A DNA stretch of 64,000 nucleotides from an uncultured Clostridia bacterium (GTDB lineage: Bacteria; Bacillota; Clostridia; Christensenellales; UBA1242). The notes below the pieces were generated by a model. That model saw nothing but the letters and a program-made list of their open reading frames with translations, had not been told where the DNA came from and searched no databases. Made by a program: the position numbers and the translations under genes. This document shows positions 3,356 through 44,014 of the stretch, piece after piece. The stretch lies in assembly GCA_944377365.1 (NCBI GenBank), contig CALWEQ010000010.1, positions 70,455-134,454 on the forward strand, read 5' to 3'. Position 1 is the first letter of the stretch. Each line of letters starts with the position of its first letter.

Positions 3356-4888
3356 TTATACCTTTTCGCTTAACTTCAACAATACTTTTGCTGTCGCAAA
3401 AGCATCATTATAAGCTCTATGCGCGCCAGTCAAATCAATTCCAAGTGCCGTAGAAACTGTAGAAAGCTTAAAATTGCTTATTTTTAGGTGCTTACTTCTA
3501 GCTATTAACATAACATCTAGGTTGTCATTTTCTAATGATAAATTGACTTTTTGATACGCTTTGCGTAAAAATTTGTTGTCGAAGTCAGTATTGTTGTAAC
3601 CAGAAATTACACAGCCTTTTGTGAATTTGTAAAAATCGATTATAACGTCTTCAATCTTTGGTGCGTTTTCTACCATTTCATTTGTGATATGATTAATTTT
3701 GGTTGCCGATTCTGGAATAGGTGTAATCGGTTTGACAAATGTAGAAAACTTTTTTGTTATTTTTCCTTTTTCAATTTTTATAGCACCGATTTCAATTATT
3801 TCACAGGTTTCAGGGTCAAGTCCTGTGGTTTCTAAATCGTAAACAACTATATTTCTAGAAGCTATTGGCTCATCGTAGACAGGCTCTTTAATAAAAATGT
3901 TTTCTTGGCGGTTTTCATAGTAATCTTCTATGCTTACTACTTGCCGTTTTAAAACAATTTCATCGTCATCGTTTTCTTTTGGAGGGGTTTTTAATTGCGC
4001 TAAAGTCATAGATGAAATATAGTATGTCAATTTTCCAGATAAGCCCACTTTAATGTCGCCAAGACATAAAAAACAAAGATTTTCTTGTAATGCGGAAAGC
4101 TTAGGTTGGTTTGTTTTTGTAGAAAAATAAACACATTCTATGCTGTTGCCGTCATTTAATAAAAAAGTAGCATATTTTTTTTCTTGTCCTGCCATCTTCC
4201 CTTTTTTTGCCGTAAAAGATTTTATTTCAATTTTCGAGATGTTGCCAAACAAAATAACTGATGTTTTAGGTTTTTTATTGTTTTTTATTTGCTCAGGGAA
4301 AGGAGAAATGTCTTTACCAAAAAGTTTCTTAATTGGTGTAACTTCATATCGCGAAGTTTTTTTAGCTTCAAGTTTGTATTTTATCGGTGCGATTTCTCCT
4401 GGGATTTCAAAATTATTGTCTTCAACTGCAACTATTTCAAAATTTCCTAAAAAGTTGTTCCCCAAAAACTCCAACAATTTAATTTTTACAAATCTATTGT
4501 CAAAATAATCTTTTACTAATTTGCTTAAATGTAACTCTATTTCGACGTTATTGTTTTCTTTTTTCAAAAAAATCTGTTGCTGTGAAAATTCTGATGAAAT
4601 GGCAGGATAGCTTTCAGTGAAAAATTTAATTATTTCTTTTTTAAGCAACCTTTCGTCCAAGAAACTTTTTTTGAATTTAATCCGTATTTTGCTGAAAAGT
4701 GAAATATTGTCCTTTACAAACTTTTCTATTTCTTTTCTTTCATCGCTAGTAATTTCGTCGATAGTTTCTGGATATAAAAAAGTAAAGACGCATTCTTCAC
4801 TTTCATAGTCTAAACTCACGTCATACAATCTCAAATAATCAAATTTTCCATTCTCATAGCTTATGAGGCCTTGTGTTAAAATATCCAC
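3356..4888 (-). CDS. DEDDh 3'-5' exonuclease (PolC/epsilon-type) with a long N-terminal OB-like region and no polymerase domains
   Basis: C-terminal 170 aa carry Exo I VYDLETTGL, Exo II GYNNTDFD and Exo III HRAYNDA, resembling the PolC proofreading domain. GTG start 9 nt after the rseP stop. Occupies the slot between rseP and rimP. Confidence 0.6.
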   Translation of the reverse strand: MDILTQGLISYENGKFDYLRLYDVSLDYESEECVFTFLYPETIDEITSDERKEIEKFVKDNISLFSKIRIKFKKSFLDERLLKKEIIKFFTESYPAISSEFSQQQIFLKKENNNVEIELHLSKLVKDYFDNRFVKIKLLEFLGNNFLGNFEIVAVEDNNFEIPGEIAPIKYKLEAKKTSRYEVTPIKKLFGKDISPFPEQIKNNKKPKTSVILFGNISKIEIKSFTAKKGKMAGQEKKYATFLLNDGNSIECVYFSTKTNQPKLSALQENLCFLCLGDIKVGLSGKLTYYISSMTLAQLKTPPKENDDDEIVLKRQVVSIEDYYENRQENIFIKEPVYDEPIASRNIVVYDLETTGLDPETCEIIEIGAIKIEKGKITKKFSTFVKPITPIPESATKINHITNEMVENAPKIEDVIIDFYKFTKGCVISGYNNTDFDNKFLRKAYQKVNLSLENDNLDVMLIARSKHLKISNFKLSTVSTALGIDLTGAHRAYNDAFATAKVLLKLSEKV

Positions 4889-4897
4889 ATTTAAATT

Positions 4898-6034
4898 TTA
4901 CAAAATAAAGTGTAAAATGTCAACAATAATTACAAAAGCAAAAAGCACGCATAAACCTATAAAGTGAATTTTGTTTTCCAAACTTCGCTTTATCGGCTTT
5001 TTTCTGATCCATTCTATTGTTGTAAAAACCACATGAGAGCCATCGAGTGCCGGTATAGGCAACAAGTTGAATATAGCTAGATTTGCTGAAATTGCAGGAA
5101 TTAAGATCAACAGGTTAAGCCAATTAGTTTGTGTGGCTGACGCGATCATTGTTATAGTAGTGACAGGACCACCTACTGCGGAAATTGGCAGTTGAAAAGT
5201 TATCAAAAGCCATAATGATTTTAAAACTACCCAAGCAAAACCAAAAGCGACCTCCCAACATCTTAAAAGTGCTTCTCCAAAAGAGTAAACATATGGTGAG
5301 TAAGAAAAACACAAATAAATGTTTTCAGATGCTAATGTATTTGTACCCTCATAATAAGATCTTATCACTTGGAAAGAGATCTCTTTGTTTTGAATTTTTC
5401 CGTCACGATTGATTGTGACATTAAATGAATATCCTTCCAATTGTCCGTCTGGAGCGTTTTCAATACCGCCATAAGTGTTGTTAATAAATTCGAAAGCTTC
5501 GGCCTGTTTTTTAGCTATTAGATTTTGAAAAGTATCACCAAAAGCAAAATCAACTTCAACCCCGTCTATATGCGTGATGACATCTCCTTCTTCGAGTTGA
5601 GTTTGCACATATGGTTGATTGTTAATAGTAATAGTGTTGGATTTGATTTGAGGCAAATCATAACCAGCTGTGCAAAGTAAAATTAAGGAAAATAAAACGG
5701 CAGTTAAAAAGTTCATCGTTATTCCAGCTAAGAAAACGATAATCCTTTTCCATGGCTTTTGGGCATTAAAGCTGTCTTTTGCAGGTGTTTCGTTGTCGTC
5801 TTCTTCACCTTTAAAAGCACAATAACCACCAAGAGGAAAAACCCGTAATGAAATGAGTTCGCCTCGTTTGTTTTTTCGCTGAAAAATAGGCTTACCAAAG
5901 CCTATCGAAAACTCTGTAATTTTGAATTTTAATATCCTTCCTGCAATATAATGACCTAGTTCGTGAACGAGCACCATAAAAAGCAAAATTATAATTGCGA
6001 TTGCAATGTAGAGGACATAAGTTAAAACTTGCAT
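4898..6034 (-). CDS. rseP: RIP zinc metalloprotease RseP (site-2 protease, M50)
   Basis: HELGHY in TM1, a PDZ-like middle region, NLLPIPALDG motif. Synteny after cdsA. Confidence 0.9.
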   Translation of the reverse strand: MQVLTYVLYIAIAIIILLFMVLVHELGHYIAGRILKFKITEFSIGFGKPIFQRKNKRGELISLRVFPLGGYCAFKGEEDDNETPAKDSFNAQKPWKRIIVFLAGITMNFLTAVLFSLILLCTAGYDLPQIKSNTITINNQPYVQTQLEEGDVITHIDGVEVDFAFGDTFQNLIAKKQAEAFEFINNTYGGIENAPDGQLEGYSFNVTINRDGKIQNKEISFQVIRSYYEGTNTLASENIYLCFSYSPYVYSFGEALLRCWEVAFGFAWVVLKSLWLLITFQLPISAVGGPVTTITMIASATQTNWLNLLILIPAISANLAIFNLLPIPALDGSHVVFTTIEWIRKKPIKRSLENKIHFIGLCVLFAFVIIVDILHFIL

Positions 6035-20844: not shown

Positions 20845-21125
20845 CCAAATAATTCTGCAAAATAATCAGGAAATGCCACAACAAAAATGTAAACTAAGCT
20901 GACAAGAATAAGCAATATGAGTAAAATGATTTTTAATATATTTCCAGTAAAATTTGTAACCGCAAATGCAAACAAAAGTGCGACACCTCCATACATGGAA
21001 ATATAGTAAACAAACTCTCCCCATTGACCCAACGCTTTTAAATCAGGAACTGCAGCAACAAAAATCATCAAGGCAATGTAAACTATAACCAAAATTGATA
21101 AAATTAAATAAATTAATCTTTTCAT
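20835..21125 (-). CDS. small 3-TM membrane protein
   Basis: 96 aa, three hydrophobic helices. Start overlaps the upstream stop (ATGA). Confidence 0.5.
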   Translation of the reverse strand: MKRLIYLILSILVIVYIALMIFVAAVPDLKALGQWGEFVYYISMYGGVALLFAFAVTNFTGNILKIILLILLILVSLVYIFVVAFPDYFAELFGLA

Positions 21126-22192
21126 TCAGCCACCTTTTTGTTTTTCTTTTCAACTCTTTCAATTTTTTGTTCAAATTTTAAAAGTTTCTTTTCGTTTCTA
21201 GCACGCTCTTTTTCTTCTTTTTCTTTTTCTTTTTCTAATTTTAATTGTTGCTTTTTTAAGGTAATCAAACTTTTGTCTTTTTTTACTTTACTTCTTTTAA
21301 CTTTGCTTTTTGTCTTCTTTTTGCGTCTTTTTATTGCAAGCTTTTTGCTTCCATCTTCTGGCATACTTTCAAGCAAACAATCTGGATTTGCAAACATATC
21401 TTTCCAAACTCTAAGCGACTTTGCAAAGTAGAAACCGTCTGCTACCCTTTCATCCATTGTAATTCCTAGGTTCATGACTTTTCCAAGTTTTAATTCCTTG
21501 TTTTTTTCAACTACTGGCGCAATTTTTTCCTTCCCCATTGCAACAAACAAACTGCAATTTCCAAACTCATACAAGTGGTGAAAAATTGCATCGTTTTTTA
21601 TTGATTTTAGGTTGGTTAAAAAGGCGCTACAGTGAAAGCAACTTGCTTCTATTAAAGATTTTGGCATCATGTTGTGTCTATCTAGCCAGCCAACAATTTT
21701 TAGTGCAAGTCGAAACAACCAATTTGGAAGTTTGCCAAATGAATCAGCTTTGTCAGTAGTGCCGTACACCGAGTCAGGTTTTATGTTTTTTGCTATTATA
21801 TCTTCAACATATGCTTTTACTTCTGACAAACTTTCACGACCAGTAAAATGGAATTTTAAATCAACATCTTCCCCATCGTCTGCAAGTTGTTTTTTTACAA
21901 CCATGCAAATTGATATGTCTTTGTGTTCATAAATAACGTTGTGATTGATAAAATAGTTAAGTTTTGGTCTTAGATATAATAGGCGAACAAGAGATGTTAG
22001 CATTATGTCCGTGTAAGTATAATGGTTTCCCAATTTGCGTTGTCGCAAAATAAATTCATCCATCGGCTCACATCTGATTTGATCCATGAAATAATTTGAA
22101 GCGCCAATTCTGGTTGGCATGAAAAATGGTGCAGCCTTTGTTACTGCATCTAAATTTTTTACTTTTATTCCATCACTTCTTTTACTAAACAT
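21122..22192 (-). CDS. 2-oxoacid dehydrogenase E2/CAT-fold acyltransferase-like protein with a K/E-rich tail
   Basis: The first ~280 aa resemble an E2 catalytic domain. The signature region reads GITMDERVADGFYFAKSL, where DHRxxDG is expected. The C-terminal 75 aa are K/E low complexity. SD AAAGGAG. Confidence 0.45.
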   Translation of the reverse strand: MFSKRSDGIKVKNLDAVTKAAPFFMPTRIGASNYFMDQIRCEPMDEFILRQRKLGNHYTYTDIMLTSLVRLLYLRPKLNYFINHNVIYEHKDISICMVVKKQLADDGEDVDLKFHFTGRESLSEVKAYVEDIIAKNIKPDSVYGTTDKADSFGKLPNWLFRLALKIVGWLDRHNMMPKSLIEASCFHCSAFLTNLKSIKNDAIFHHLYEFGNCSLFVAMGKEKIAPVVEKNKELKLGKVMNLGITMDERVADGFYFAKSLRVWKDMFANPDCLLESMPEDGSKKLAIKRRKKKTKSKVKRSKVKKDKSLITLKKQQLKLEKEKEKEEKERARNEKKLLKFEQKIERVEKKNKKVAE

Positions 22193-23593: not shown

Positions 23594-23635
23594 TAAAAAA
23601 GTGCTAAATGCCTTTATTTATAAGGCATTCAGCAC
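23594..23635 (-). terminator. strong terminator whose stem includes the last codons and stop of the 397-aa gene
   Basis: 14-bp stem GTGCTGAATGCCTT/AAGGCATTTAGCAC, 7-nt loop, T6. Confidence 0.75.
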
Positions 23636-24797
23636 TATTTTTTAGCTCTTTAAATGTTAAATAATTTTTTCCGATAAATTTTGTGTTTCCGATTTGAATG
23701 TAACCTTGCTCACTCCCAAAAATTACATTGATTTTTTTCCATACTCTTCCATCAAATATTTGCAATGACGAGATGTTTTCTAAACCCATAAAAACAAAAT
23801 TTTTTTCATTTTGTACTAAATATTGTTCTTTTAATCTTGTATATTCGATTTCGCTTTTTTCATCATTTTCTCCTTTAAGCCAAGATAAATATATTCTTTC
23901 TGGTAAAGTTTGATTTAAAAGTCGTTGCTCGTTTTTATTCTTTGATTTTATTCTTAAGTTAAATCTTTCATTAATTTGTCTGTCAGCTTCAGCCATAAAC
24001 ATTTCCATTTCGCCTTGATTTGATAGAACAAATTTTTGATCTCCATAATTAAAGAAAAAAACTTTTTTCTGCTTAGGTTTTAAACATACTTCACATTGAA
24101 TGTTGACACATGCATGTGTGCAGTTTTCTACGCCGTCAATACAAGAAAAAACAAATCGCGATTGTTTGCAATTAAAGTTAAAATATGTTTTATCGCAAGA
24201 AAACAAATTGGTAATTTCAACACATGAATACTTTTTTTGAAAATAGTAATACCCTTTTTCTAATGGCACATTGATTGTAAACGTTATCTTTTTAACAGAG
24301 TTTGACAGGTTTATAAATTCTACATAATAGCTTCTCCCACACATAACAAATTCTTTAATGTAATATTTAATTTCATCTTTTATCCCTGTTGATAATAAAT
24401 AAAAATCATGTAAACACATGTTCTGTCGATAACCATTGATTTCAATGTAATTTTCTTCTGCCTTTAAATGGTAGCCAGAATTAGATTTATAATTTACATT
24501 TAATTTGTTAACATCAGGATTGTTTTTTAAAACTATTGCACCAAGTTTTTTTTGTGCTCGTTTGTTTTCTTCAGTAATAATTAGATTAAAGTCACAAACT
24601 GTTTTCGCACGCTGAAAACATTTAAATATTGGGCGAGAAAGTTCTTTTTCGAATTTAAACACAGGCAATGATGGGTCAATGCCGAGTTTTATAAGTTTGT
24701 CAAAATCTATGTCAGTGCTGTAAAGAATTGGAGCATGAAATCTTAATCGATTGAGTATTAAGTTTGTCATATTAAATAAATAATCTCTTTTCTTCAT
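23604..24797 (-). CDS. hypothetical protein, 397 aa, Cys-rich central region
   Basis: Long open frame with no recognisable motif and no SD before the ATG. Starts 20 nt after the rnpB terminator. Confidence 0.55.
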   Translation of the reverse strand: MKKRDYLFNMTNLILNRLRFHAPILYSTDIDFDKLIKLGIDPSLPVFKFEKELSRPIFKCFQRAKTVCDFNLIITEENKRAQKKLGAIVLKNNPDVNKLNVNYKSNSGYHLKAEENYIEINGYRQNMCLHDFYLLSTGIKDEIKYYIKEFVMCGRSYYVEFINLSNSVKKITFTINVPLEKGYYYFQKKYSCVEITNLFSCDKTYFNFNCKQSRFVFSCIDGVENCTHACVNIQCEVCLKPKQKKVFFFNYGDQKFVLSNQGEMEMFMAEADRQINERFNLRIKSKNKNEQRLLNQTLPERIYLSWLKGENDEKSEIEYTRLKEQYLVQNEKNFVFMGLENISSLQIFDGRVWKKINVIFGSEQGYIQIGNTKFIGKNYLTFKELKNSAECLINKGI

Positions 24798-24815: not shown

Positions 24816-24845
24816 ATAAAAAAAAGCAAACATAAAACGTTTGCT
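24816..24845 (-). terminator. terminator after RNase P RNA
   Basis: AGCAAAC/GTTTGCT stem, then T8-9 on the minus strand. Confidence 0.7.
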
Positions 24846-24850
24846 AAATT

Positions 24851-25183
24851 CAGTCAAACATAAGCCGAGTTCTGTGTCATGTGGTCATCTATCTAGGCCT
24901 AATGTTGCCAATAGGCTCAAGCGTTGCTTTTGGAAGACGTGAAAGACAGCACATTGTCTTCGCTTAAACTTGCATCGAGTGGGGTTTACAGTGACGAAAG
25001 ATGTTTCCACCTTTCCGGTAAGCTCTTGCCTCACCTTTCCATCCTTACCCTTGCGGGCGGTTTATTTCTGTTGCACTTTCCTTAGAGTCGCCTCCACCGG
25101 TCGTTAGCCGGCACTCCGTCTTTTGATGCCCGGACTTTCCTCATTTTGCTTTTACAAGCAAACCGCGACCACAAGTTTGACTG
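24851..25183 (-). ncRNA. rnpB: RNase P RNA, bacterial type A
   Basis: Minus strand contains GAGGAAAGTCCGGGC, GTGCAACAGAAATAAACCGCC, GGTAAGGATGGAAAGGTGAGGCAAGAGC, GTAAACCCCAC and ACAGAACTCGGCTTAT. P1 pairs CAGTCAAAC with GTTTGACTG. Confidence 0.9.
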
Positions 25184-25221
25184 ACCCAATCATTTTAACA
25201 TAAAATGAGGTTTATGTCAAC

Positions 25222-26577
25222 TTAGTTGACAGTAAAAAGAAGTTTTGGATGCTTTTTGTCAGCTGTAAATCCTTGAAATTCTCCATCTTGCGAAATTTTA
25301 ATTGCGACACCATATTTAGATAGAGCCATAGCTGCGGCTTTTCTACCACCACCGCTAATGGAGCCTGCTTCAATTTTCAATATAGCACCAGCAGCTATTA
25401 TGCTACCGTCGAAATCTACAATAGTTGCCCCATCCATTGCAACAATCTCTTGCCTAAATTTTCTGCTTAATTCATGAAATTTTTTTCCTTGAATAATTTG
25501 ATTTAAACAAATTGATTTAAAGCAACAATTCTTTGACAAAAAGTTTTCAAAATCATCACTATACAATTTTCTTATTTCTTCAGCATTGTTTAAATTAAAT
25601 ATTTTGTCTGCTTCTTCTAATTGCTGTTCTTTTTTTATATTGTAGTATTTTTCTTCAACAATGTCATTCGCATTTATATGAGTAAGGGCTTGTTCAACCA
25701 TATCGCGCTTTAAATAAACAATTATTCCGCCAGAATATTTAAATGAACAATCGAGAGAAGTTAAATAAACAGCACGTCTAACCTCTCGCAAGGAATGAGT
25801 TGATCTGTAAGAGAGAAGCTGAATGACCTCTTCATGACTATAGATGTTCCATTTTCCGCGTCTTTTTGCAAACATCAAAGTTCGGTTTTTAAATATGAGC
25901 AAATCACCACTTTCAGTTAACACCATGCCAACTTTACGATCATTGCAATATCTTGCAACACTGTTGTAATCGTTTGGAGCGGTTGTAGAATAATTTCTTA
26001 CTTTTTCAAGAGACACATAACCTGTCAAATAACCGTCCTTGTTGAATTCAACAAACGAATGCTTTCCATCAGAAAGCAAGGCAAAAAAATCTGTTGAAAT
26101 TATATTAGAATAATGCAATTTTTTTTCAGTGTCAGTTTCAGAAAGATTTAATATTATGCCAAAATCAACTGCTTTGCCTTCATAAGTGCGATTGCTCCAT
26201 CTTGTCAATGCGCTAATCAACCCAAGCATTACTGAAGAAGCAGATGATGCAACGCTGTCGCAAACAGCTTTCTCAACAGCTTTTTCTTGCAAAGTTAGTT
26301 CATAAGTAGGATCTAAAAAAACTGATTCATTTATTTGGCTGAGTTCTTTTAAAATGTTTTTTAACAGAGAGATTTCGAAAGGTTGAAAAGCTCTTCCGCG
26401 TTTAATTATAAATCTGTAATCGGCTAATTTAGTTGGCTTTATCAATAAAGAATTTTGCTTGCCTATCGCTATTTCTGATTCTCTCGCGTTAGACTCTTCT
26501 TCACCCATTAAAATTGAGCCAGTGAAAAGCGGTAAAATTAATTTTGTTAAAACAACGTAAAACTTATCCTTTTCCAA
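25222..26577 (-). CDS. DisA_N/DAC-like domain protein with a ~270-aa unassigned N-terminal region
   Basis: C-terminus reads SGGIIVYL...MDGATIVDFDGSIIAAGAILKIEAGSISGGGRKAAAMALSKYGVAIKISQDGEF, following the diadenylate cyclase pattern (GALIV...DGAxI...GxRHRAA...VSEE-G), but RHR is replaced by RKA. TTG start 9 nt after AAGGGAG. Confidence 0.5.
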   Translation of the reverse strand: MEKDKFYVVLTKLILPLFTGSILMGEEESNARESEIAIGKQNSLLIKPTKLADYRFIIKRGRAFQPFEISLLKNILKELSQINESVFLDPTYELTLQEKAVEKAVCDSVASSASSVMLGLISALTRWSNRTYEGKAVDFGIILNLSETDTEKKLHYSNIISTDFFALLSDGKHSFVEFNKDGYLTGYVSLEKVRNYSTTAPNDYNSVARYCNDRKVGMVLTESGDLLIFKNRTLMFAKRRGKWNIYSHEEVIQLLSYRSTHSLREVRRAVYLTSLDCSFKYSGGIIVYLKRDMVEQALTHINANDIVEEKYYNIKKEQQLEEADKIFNLNNAEEIRKLYSDDFENFLSKNCCFKSICLNQIIQGKKFHELSRKFRQEIVAMDGATIVDFDGSIIAAGAILKIEAGSISGGGRKAAAMALSKYGVAIKISQDGEFQGFTADKKHPKLLFTVN

Positions 26578-26630
26578 CGCCTAGAACTCCCTTATATATG
26601 CATTTTACAATATAACTTAGAAAAAATCAA

Positions 26631-27347
26631 TTAATTTTCACCTTTATCATAATAATTTTTAGACAAATCATCTTTAATTAGTTCTAATGCCTTTGCCTCT
26701 ATTCTTGAAACGTAACTTCTTGATATTCCAAGTTCCTCTGCGAGTTCCTTTTGAGTGTAAACTTTTTGGCCATTTAGTCCATATCTTTTAATCACGATTT
26801 CTTTTTCTCGTTTTGTCAAATGTTTGTCAATGACATTGTTTATTTTCTCCATAATAAATGATGATGAGACGGCATCTTCTACCTCGTCTTCATCAGATTC
26901 AATTATGTCCATTAAAAGCACTTCATTGCCATCTTTATCCGAGGCAAATTTACTTGATAAAGAAACGACATCCTTATGTTTCTTGTTTACCCTTATCAAC
27001 ATTAATATTTCATTGTCAATGCATTTTGAAGCATAAGTCGCAAGTCCAACACCTTTTTCATAATTGAAGCTGTCAATAGCTTTAATTAACCCTATTGCAC
27101 CCACAGAAATCAAATCATCAACTTCAATTGTAACCGAACCAGCATATTTTTTTACAATGTGCGACACCAACCGCAGATTGTGATTAATAAGTTTGCTTCT
27201 AGCCTGCATATCCCCTTTTTCACGATATTTGATAAGTAGTTCTTTTTCCTTTTCCTTACTTAATGGTTTTGGAAAACCTTCTGTATTGTTGATAAAAGCA
27301 GTAAAACATCTAAGTTTTGACAAAAAAAATGGTAAACTTTCAAACAC
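26631..27347 (-). CDS. sigK: sporulation sigma factor, SigK-like (pro-sigma with a short N-terminal leader)
   Basis: FPKPLS, HNLRLVSHIVKKY, DLISVGAIGLIKAIDSF and GISRSYVSRIEAKAL are closer to SigK than SigE wording. GTG start after AAGGAGAGG. Confidence 0.7.
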   Translation of the reverse strand: MFESLPFFLSKLRCFTAFINNTEGFPKPLSKEKEKELLIKYREKGDMQARSKLINHNLRLVSHIVKKYAGSVTIEVDDLISVGAIGLIKAIDSFNYEKGVGLATYASKCIDNEILMLIRVNKKHKDVVSLSSKFASDKDGNEVLLMDIIESDEDEVEDAVSSSFIMEKINNVIDKHLTKREKEIVIKRYGLNGQKVYTQKELAEELGISRSYVSRIEAKALELIKDDLSKNYYDKGEN

Positions 27348-27480
27348 AAGACCTCTCCTTTTAGAAAAATGTATATGTCGAAATTTACCGAATTTTGCTT
27401 GGACATATTAAATTGATTGGCATAATTTAAAATTAAAAAAACAAGCCTTAAAATTGACTTGTTTTTAATTGAAACAAAAA

Positions 27481-43926: not shown

Positions 43927-44014
43927 GCAGAGGTGTCAGAGCGGTCTAATGTGCACGCTTGGAAAGCGTGTGTGGTGAGAGCCACCTCGGGTTCGAATCC
44001 CGACCTCTGCGCCA
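43927..44014 (+). tRNA. tRNA-Ser (anticodon GGA), encoded CCA
   Basis: Acceptor GCAGAGG/CCTCTGC. Anticodon stem CACGC/GCGTG with loop TTGGAAA. Long variable arm. T-arm TCGGG-TTCGAAT-CCCGA. Discriminator G then CCA. Confidence 0.9.

Follow-up and report, generated by a model that had tools for sequence, protein, structure and literature searches.

The window analysed here is a 64,000-nt stretch of contig CALWEQ010000010.1 from an uncultured Clostridia bacterium. It carries an open reading frame (ORF) whose 451-aa product, hereafter X, is the subject of this report. The gene is located between sigK and rnpB, where the first-pass annotation, made from the sequence alone, had placed it, and matches to NCBIfam NF004471 and to Rfam agree with this placement (Table 1). 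sigK, X and rnpB are bounded by terminator-like hairpins (27437-27466 and 24825-24845), and no terminator was found between the three. The start of X is preceded by the ribosome-binding site AAGGGAG, 9 nt away. Judged from residue conservation and structural models, X is most likely a cyclic-nucleotide synthase that is regulated by a sensor and contacts phosphate in a non-canonical way, related to the diadenylate cyclase (DAC) enzymes. No canonical cdaA or disA gene was found within the 64-kb window.

The last ~190 residues of X (Domain 3) are predicted to have the alpha/beta fold of a DAC domain, as had been proposed from the sequence, and it is structure that decides this assignment. Two AlphaFold2 (AF2) models were compared with the Protein Data Bank (PDB) by Foldseek, namely a model of X (mean predicted local distance difference test score, pLDDT, 82) and a model of the short-form relative P0138, for which a separate alignment of greater diversity was used (pLDDT 88, predicted template modelling score 0.89). 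For both models the best 14 matches are all DisA chains, with probabilities of 0.99-1.00 for X and 1.00 for the short form. The DisA alignments span 160-210 columns at 11-16% identity, and the E-values worsen more than tenfold below the 14th rank. In the model, helices and strands also succeed one another around the motifs as they do in a DAC domain. At the sequence level the similarity to canonical DACs is marginal. The Pfam DAC model (PF02457) matches X with 23.7 bits and E = 3.7e-5 over profile positions 43-100 of 119, a match confined to the DGA-to-RHR core. The same model matches 10 of 46 diverse relatives (E <= 5), and precomputed PF02457 matches are present on a few close homologs. An alignment of the family C-terminal domain was further compared by hhalign with aligned sequences of verified CdaA and DisA proteins, giving E = 0.002 and a probability of 13.8%. 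Only Pfam's own hidden Markov model, hhalign and the fold comparison connect X to the solved DACs. The resemblance is beyond chance because the Pfam E-value, the hhalign register and the two independent models agree.

Domain 3 contains four motifs in the DAC order that the first-pass annotation had listed: GGIIVYL (residues 283-289), MDGATIVDFDGSIIAAGA (residues 381-398), GGGRKAAAMALS (residues 409-420) and IKISQDGEF (residues 426-434), with the C-terminus 17 residues further on. In the hhalign register, the DGA of X falls on the DGA of the verified enzymes, and R412, K413 and A414 fall on the first Arg, the His and the second Arg of the RHR motif. S429 is aligned to CdaA S222 and D431 to CdaA E224. 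Conservation was measured over 138 sequences that span the family down to ~24% identity. E133, D276, G283, D382, G383, G397, G410, R412, G423, S429 and D431 are invariant in this set. Position 384, the third residue of DGA, is Ala or Ser in every sequence, and the DGA motif of X (D382-G383-A384) is intact as had been stated. Y132, W243 and R372 are each kept in 137 sequences, R375 in 135 and K427 in 134, and position 354 is Lys or Arg in all 138. The RHR motif, in turn, had been read as R-K-A in X (R412-K413-A414), and the replacement extends to the whole family. Position 413 is Leu (63 sequences), Arg (18), Gly (17), Lys (13), Thr (9) or other residues and never His, and position 414 is Ala in 136 of the 138 and never Arg or Lys. 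The loss of RHR, which reads R-x-A, is therefore the defining signature of the family and no accident of X.

X differs from most of its relatives by a helical insert. The spacing from GG.I to DGA is 91 residues in X, ~40 in CdaA and 57 in short-form relatives, in agreement with the insertion, of about 50 aa relative to CdaA, that had been noted between the first two DAC elements. Most relatives are 400-420 aa long and match the family profile as two stretches, 1-310 and ~345-442. Correspondingly, the model of X shows extra helices at residues 309-349 in comparison with the short-form model. About 35 of the insert residues are specific to the lineage of X and are missing from most relatives.

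Two further globular domains are predicted to precede the DAC-like domain. Domain 1 comprises one helix, four strands and three long helices in the AF2 model. Its weak Foldseek matches, with probabilities of at most 0.6, are the longin domains of zeta-COP, sigma-adaptin and Sec22b, and 2 of 46 relatives are weakly matched by Pfam Robl_LC7 (best E = 0.0098), which suggests a weakly roadblock/longin-like module. Domain 2 has no relatives in Pfam, NCBIfam or the PDB, and its residues Y132-E133-G134, P201, R239 and W243 are invariant or nearly so. DACNK was considered as an identity for Domain 2 and rejected as noise (Pfam E = 0.12, recurring in 1 of 46 relatives). No model in Pfam, NCBIfam or PADLOC covers the N-terminal ~260 residues as a whole. 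Residues 6-24 are borderline hydrophobic (Kyte-Doolittle 19-residue mean 1.82) and are modelled confidently by AlphaFold as helix 1 and strand 1 of the globular Domain 1. The earlier description of the N-terminal region as lacking recognisable motifs and transmembrane (TM) helices therefore stands; no convincing TM helix was observed. X is predicted to be a soluble, cytoplasmic protein of three domains with a C-terminal DAC-like domain, which, as had also been suggested, fits none of the CdaA, DisA and CdaS architectures.

Table 1. Position of X, its domains and motifs, and the adjoining features in the window.
Feature	Position	Strand	Basis or remark
ORF X, 451 aa + stop codon	25222..26577	minus	ORF list; TTG start; homolog N-termini coincide with start
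Domain 1, residues ~1-128, putative sensor/interaction module	26194..26577	minus	AF2, pLDDT ~85-92
Domain 2, residues ~129-261, alpha/beta (predicted)	25795..26193	minus	AF2 model
Domain 3, residues 262-451, predicted divergent DAC (DisA_N) fold	25225..25794	minus	Foldseek, Pfam DAC, hhalign, element order
Lineage-specific helical insert, residues ~305-350, from strand 1 (GG.I) to pre-DGA helix	25528..25665	minus	Profile matches, models
D382-G383-A384, DGA motif	25426..25434	minus	Aligns to CdaA D171-G-A
G409-G-G-R412-K413-A414, G-T-R-H-R equivalent	25336..25353	minus	hhalign register, R412 = CdaA R203
S429-Q-D431, CdaA S222-E-E224 equivalent	25285..25293	minus	hhalign register
Ribosome-binding site AAGGGAG of X	26593..26587	minus	In sigK-X intergenic region
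Sigma-70-like promoter of X, TTGATT-17-TAAAAT	26630..26602	minus	In 53-nt sigK-X intergenic region
sigK, directly 5´ of X	26631..27347	minus	NCBIfam NF004471, 274 bits vs cutoff 252
rnpB promoter TTGACA-17-TAAAAT, 11/12, with TG	25220..25192	minus	One base past X stop
rnpB, RNase P RNA class A, directly 3´ of X	24846..25184	minus	Rfam 264.7 bits
Terminator after rnpB	24845..24825	minus	Terminator scan

The locus was compared across 80 clade loci with 48-92% identity to X, which were collected by a scan of species-representative genomes. All 80 come from metagenome-assembled genomes of uncultured Clostridia of the gut or rumen, some of which carry the label Christensenellaceae or Ca. Caccovivens, and the conserved order in this clade is SMC-FtsY-sigK-X-rnpB-orf397-RarA-orf356. 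X adjoins rnpB in 74 of the 80 loci and sigK in 70. Six of the ten loci without sigK end upstream of the gene, so that sigK stands directly 5´ of X in 70 of 74 informative loci, which answers the earlier suggestion to check co-occurrence with sigK across relatives. The true exceptions are L037 and L078-L080, the latter three being Ca. Caccovivens-type members. L056 and L074 retain a bona fide sigK directly 5´ of X, with every other neighbour changed. The gap between sigK and X has a median of ~100 nt across the clade and almost never contains a terminator-like hairpin. A promoter match (TTGnnn-17-TATAnT, at least 10 of 12 positions) occurs within 120 nt 5´ of X in 30 of 79 clade loci, compared with 3.7 expected from shuffles. 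This is a strong enrichment, and X usually carries its own sigma-70-type promoter in this clade. The identity of X correlates with that of SMC, FtsY and SigK (r = 0.92-0.97), and the median identities are 55% for X, 60% for SMC, 72% for FtsY and 53% for SigK. From the conserved synteny, the divergence that tracks SMC, FtsY and SigK, and the similar rate, X is a vertically inherited, core-like gene in this lineage of gut Clostridia.

Other genes at the locus show features of their own. The 397-aa ORF beyond rnpB (23604-24797, minus strand) has no Pfam or NCBIfam family and is syntenic in 62 of the 80 clade loci. Its evolution is much faster than that of the neighbouring genes (median identity 34% vs 55-72%), and its sole matches are weak and defence-flavoured (T3RM_EcoP15I_C, E = 0.004; PADLOC PDC-M02A, E = 0.005). 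A 356-aa ORF (21122-22192, minus strand) with a highly Lys/Glu-rich C-terminal tail of ~70 residues is kept in 55 of the 80 loci. This ORF has a marginal match, far below cutoff, to the catalytic end of 2-oxoacid dehydrogenase acyltransferases (dihydrolipoamide acetyltransferase model, E = 8.7e-4). In L074, a 276-aa HExxH membrane metalloprotease with a weak RseP/S2P match is encoded directly 5´ of sigK (4274-5104) and could be a SpoIVFB-like protease that processes pro-sigma-K.

The family to which X belongs is large and essentially without names. A word-indexed search returned at least 500 close clusters, none of them named, and an exhaustive profile search returned at least 1,248 representatives at 50% identity (E <= 1e-3); 396 of them reach E <= 1e-30. 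The labels seen are 'hypothetical protein' and, in a single UniRef entry, 'DAC domain-containing protein'. The 'hypothetical protein' members include WP_233483117.1 of Desulfovibrio desulfuricans and others, as well as plasmid-borne copies in Agrobacterium vitis, Paracoccus albus and Vescimonas fastidiosa. The family is also present in non-sporeformers (Desulfovibrio, Agrobacterium, Paracoccus and Bipolaricaulota). NCBIfam has no family for X, the PADLOC models give no significant match for X or eight relatives, and a scan of IMG/VR viral contigs for the family was negative. An unannotated 6.6-kb human-faecal contig deposited as 'Bacteriophage sp.' (MT837587.1) encodes at 73-1080 a homolog of 30% identity that covers 76% of X; given the negative IMG/VR scan, this contig may be bacterial. 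No prior description of the family was found in the searchable literature, a search that did not extend to the Galperin 2023 catalogue of 22 DAC architectures. We classify the family as one of DAC-fold signalling enzymes whose architecture and genomic associations are new and whose active-site signature is altered.

The genomic contexts of the short-form relatives differ from that of X. Eighty diverse environmental-metagenome loci were collected by a scan with 8 sequences, and the neighbours within four ORFs were clustered. The three most recurrent neighbour families are subunits of Type I restriction-modification (R-M) systems, which was verified with Pfam (HSDR_N and SWI2_SNF2; Methylase_S; HsdM_N and N6_Mtase). 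Such subunits lie within four ORFs in 20 of 79 short-form loci, and in 12 of the 34 with at least two ORFs on each side. The order is hsdM-hsdS-X-hsdR, almost always on the same strand, and cargo is sometimes found between the short-form gene and hsdR, either DUF488 or a pair of AAA and S8-protease genes. In L118 and L121 this pair consists of an AAA ATPase (~320-330 aa) and an S8 subtilase (~830 aa), like the IetAS toxin-antitoxin/defence pair. The short-form branch is a stand-alone defence-island gene, typically between hsdS and hsdR. In a neighbour-joining (NJ) tree, the R-M-embedded members belong to a large environmental short-form group and the window clade to a different one.

Further defence associations were observed elsewhere in the family. 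A Type II operon of the cyclic-oligonucleotide-based antiphage signalling system (CBASS) adjoins a family member in three loci (L153, L167 and L174, the last on the Agrobacterium vitis plasmid). According to the record annotation, the CBASS genes of L174 are on the opposite strand, tail-to-tail with the family member, and our own ORF calls place those of L153 and L167 apparently likewise on the opposite strand. The Paracoccus plasmid copy is ringed by insertion sequence elements. Two fusions were found at the N-terminus of relatives. P0180 of Bipolaricaulota (L085, 6001-7569) is fused to an HU domain (PF00216, E = 1e-24) and neighbours integrase, Mrr-, DUF4365- and TerB-family genes, and P0137 (L093, 5001-6824) is fused to a Schlafen AlbA_2 domain (PF04326, 30.3 bits). 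Both partners in these fusions are nucleic-acid-binding domains, a hint that the family acts at or close to DNA. Neither the size of the family nor its association with Type I R-M and CBASS was visible from the single sequence on which the first-pass annotation was based.

Several of these results weigh against X as a DAC-fold cyclase. The DisA_N profile search that the first-pass annotation had asked for gave a match, as described above, but its score is below the gathering threshold of 27 bits. Neither DisA nor CdaA was found when phmmer and two family HMMER profiles were run against all PDB sequences, the TM-scores to DisA are modest (0.25-0.47, with a root mean square deviation of 5-7 Å), and neighbour clustering of the short-form loci revealed no constant partner or effector gene. 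The missing His and second Arg could in addition mean that cyclase activity has been lost. The sub-threshold Pfam score, the failure of the HMMER profiles and the low hhalign probability are what a spurious resemblance would give, that is, a convergent or chance alpha/beta fold combined with a motif match. We hold this to be extremely improbable, since 14 DisA chains rank first for each of two independent models and the four motifs share order and register with those of the DACs, fall on corresponding secondary-structure elements and match at exactly the invariant residues. The main rival is a non-catalytic nucleotide-binding protein. As a pseudo-cyclase or receptor, X would use its DAC-like domain to bind either a nucleoside triphosphate (NTP) or a cyclic di- or oligonucleotide from another source, and would relay the signal to its N-terminal domains or to partner proteins (the Type I restriction complex or the sigma-factor machinery, for example). 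We consider this rather unlikely, even though two of the three RHR residues are missing across all 138 sequences, the gene stands alone without a dedicated effector and some relatives adjoin CBASS, which brings its own cyclase. The RHR to AAA substitution in M. tuberculosis DisA abolishes both ATP binding and activity (PMC3328451), a result on the side of a pseudo-cyclase; unlike the X family, however, that mutant also lacks the first Arg. Pseudoenzymes usually lose their catalytic acids, whereas here two acids are invariant, the DGA Asp and the Asp that aligns with the metal-binding CdaA Glu, and the first Arg is retained. The minimal defence DACs known as PanS are active and produce 3'3'-cUA or cyclic di-AMP (c-di-AMP); their catalytic motifs are 'DGF' and 'GGR', and the product backbone is contacted only by Asp, Gly, Gly and the first Arg (2026 preprint, Kranzusch laboratory), so that these two motifs alone suffice for PanS. 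The multidomain DS-2C/CBASS-DAC proteins are also active signal synthases that are needed for immunity (Kranzusch preprint; NAR 2026 paper). An active enzyme is favoured over a decayed pseudoenzyme because the Asp-Gly, G-G-R and Ser-x-Asp elements are invariant and several family-specific basic residues are strictly conserved.

The two remaining alternatives concern the role of X and not its chemistry. The first-pass annotation had linked the gene to sporulation, and X could accordingly be a sporulation-specific second-messenger enzyme, an analogue of CdaS co-expressed with sigK in the mother cell late in sporulation. The close and nearly terminator-free junction with the upstream sigK and the retention of the sigK-X pair in L056 and L074 despite changed neighbours speak for this idea, which is weakly supported. 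The closest sequence outside the clade by NJ-tree distance (L158, 5315-10435) is located between spoIIP and spoIIAA-spoIIAB-sigF. The Desulfovibrio desulfuricans homolog (L092, CP077745.1, 4266-8341) follows a partner-switching pair of an anti-sigma antagonist and a PP2C/HATPase_c_2 phosphatase/kinase-type protein and precedes rpoB-rpoC. Chromosomal members, some from unrelated lineages, stand beside sigma-factor machinery in 3 of ~12 non-R-M contexts examined, which is suggestive, not conclusive. The adjacency to sigK is, however, part of a block that is syntenic by descent (SMC-FtsY-sigK-X-rnpB), L078-L080 and L037 lack a sigK neighbour, and X has no architecture in common with CdaS. The sporulation reading is weakened because X has a sigma-70-type promoter of its own and the family is widely distributed outside sporeformers, including in defence islands. 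The sporulation-specific enzyme is improbable. X itself might instead still be an anti-phage or anti-plasmid defence gene that has become stably placed, such as a guardian that releases a toxic nucleotide signal. Associations with defence are strong in the wider family, and the fast-evolving 397-aa ORF past rnpB weakly matches defence-related models. Yet R-M, CBASS and mobile-element genes are absent around X in the 80 clade genomes, PADLOC gives no match for X, and defence genes are normally patchy and island-located, whereas the evolutionary rate of X is core-gene-like and X and its neighbours are inherited together. We therefore rate a present-day defence role of X as decidedly improbable. 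A GerE link was also considered through a 68-aa gene 5´ of the distant relative P0209 and was dismissed, the match being merely to a generic LuxR-type helix-turn-helix.

On balance, the best explanation for X is a sensor joined to a DAC-fold cyclase, as part of a large family with a core-gene branch in gut Clostridia, and we lean towards it by a small measure. The analysis shows the fold, the conservation of the motifs, the size of the family, the gene contexts and vertical inheritance; catalysis, product, dimerisation, the sensor role of the N-terminal region and the physiological role are all parts that we infer. Domains 1 and 2 would constitute the sensing or regulatory part, and the C-terminal DAC-fold domain would still bind NTPs. 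A head-to-head dimer of X could then join two NTPs into a cyclic dinucleotide, either c-di-AMP or a variant. The basic residues R372, R375, K427 and K354, which are invariant or nearly so, may substitute for the lost His and second Arg. X would be transcribed from its own sigma-70-type promoter, and read-through from sigK may contribute. The branch to which it belongs most likely has a housekeeping or developmental signalling role and not one in mobile immunity.

Compared with the established DAC proteins, X resembles DisA most closely. DisA is the best structural match of the C-terminal domain, the DGA, the first Arg and the Ser are common to both and in register, and both are soluble multidomain proteins. 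The HU and AlbA_2 fusions of some X relatives also recall the association of DisA with DNA. In contrast to DisA, in which an N-terminal DAC domain is followed by a helical spine and a C-terminal, DNA-binding helix-hairpin-helix domain, X carries its DAC-like domain at the C-terminus, lacks a helical spine and has no helix-hairpin-helix match in Pfam. The RHR motif reads R-x-A in X, the identity is 11-16% and the Pfam DAC threshold is not reached. Unlike CdaA, in which N-terminal TM helices precede the DAC domain, X has two globular N-terminal domains in the AF2 model. CdaS is a protein of ~200 aa with two autoinhibitory N-terminal helices and canonical DGA and RHR motifs. X would share with it a possible link to sporulation loci (sigK, and the sigF operon in L158), but differs in its 451-aa length, its two predicted alpha/beta N-terminal domains, the absence of RHR and the lack of an NCBIfam match.

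Among the defence systems, PanS shares with X the reduced active-site signature (DGF, GGR), and the wider family of X is likewise associated with defence islands. PanS, which was compared by description, is a minimal single domain of ~150 aa that is always paired with the membrane effector PanE (S2TM-beta), whereas X has three domains, ~260 extra N-terminal residues and no recurrent partner. DS-2C/CBASS-DAC (Liu-DS2) is similar to X in being large and soluble, with putative sensor domains at the N-terminus and the DAC domain at the C-terminus, and three X relatives adjoin CBASS operons. By experiment, DS-2C is an active signal synthase in immunity. DS-2C differs in its DACNG, DACNH and DAC composition, the last described as a canonical DisA_N domain, whereas the DAC domain of X is sub-threshold; no Pfam match to DACNG or DACNH was found in X or in 46 diverse relatives. 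X is flanked by sigK and rnpB, and the CBASS genes near its relatives do not form one operon with the family member in L174, and apparently not in L153 and L167 either. The short-form relatives occupy the same slot, hsdM-hsdS-X-hsdR, as the R-M guardians PrrC and RloC. PrrC, whose gene resides within the EcoprrI locus, fires upon inhibition of restriction (PMC12707154). PrrC and RloC are anticodon nucleases with a fold and chemistry unrelated to those of X, and X and its clade are not embedded in R-M loci.

The window as a whole has a G+C content of ~33%. Almost all of its ORFs of at least 150 aa are on the minus strand and the GC skew is negative throughout, consistent with a single replichore arm with strongly co-oriented genes. 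The sole tRNA in the window is a tRNA-Ser (GGA) on the plus strand at 43927-44014.

To our knowledge, it was only in 2026 that DAC domains were shown to make immune signals, in Panoptoo/PanS and CBASS-DAC. The studies of both systems found their proteins through the Pfam DAC signature, and surveys built on that signature would miss the family of X because it scores below it. Gut surveys of c-di-AMP producers, whose interest lies in STING-mediated effects on the host, would likewise leave this family uncounted. If its members are active, the chemistry and biological range of DAC-fold enzymes broaden, the first Arg of RHR alone would be needed for activity, and the family offers a testable candidate for a new kind of restriction 'guardian'. 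A bolder and rather doubtful interpretation is that the family constitutes a third class of defence-associated DAC-fold enzymes, larger by far than the other two, with a rewired site and a non-canonical signal, in which R-M-embedded members are guardians and one branch has been domesticated at the sigK locus. If this were true, Pfam-based screens would have missed the class because its active site is rewired (D-G-A, G-G-R-x-A, S-x-D and new invariant arginines), and the R-M-embedded members would be single-gene guardians of restriction. An immune signalling enzyme would then have been recruited into development, or the reverse. An evolutionary angle is added by the window clade, in which the protein has become a fixed core gene next to sigK throughout a lineage of uncultured gut Clostridia.

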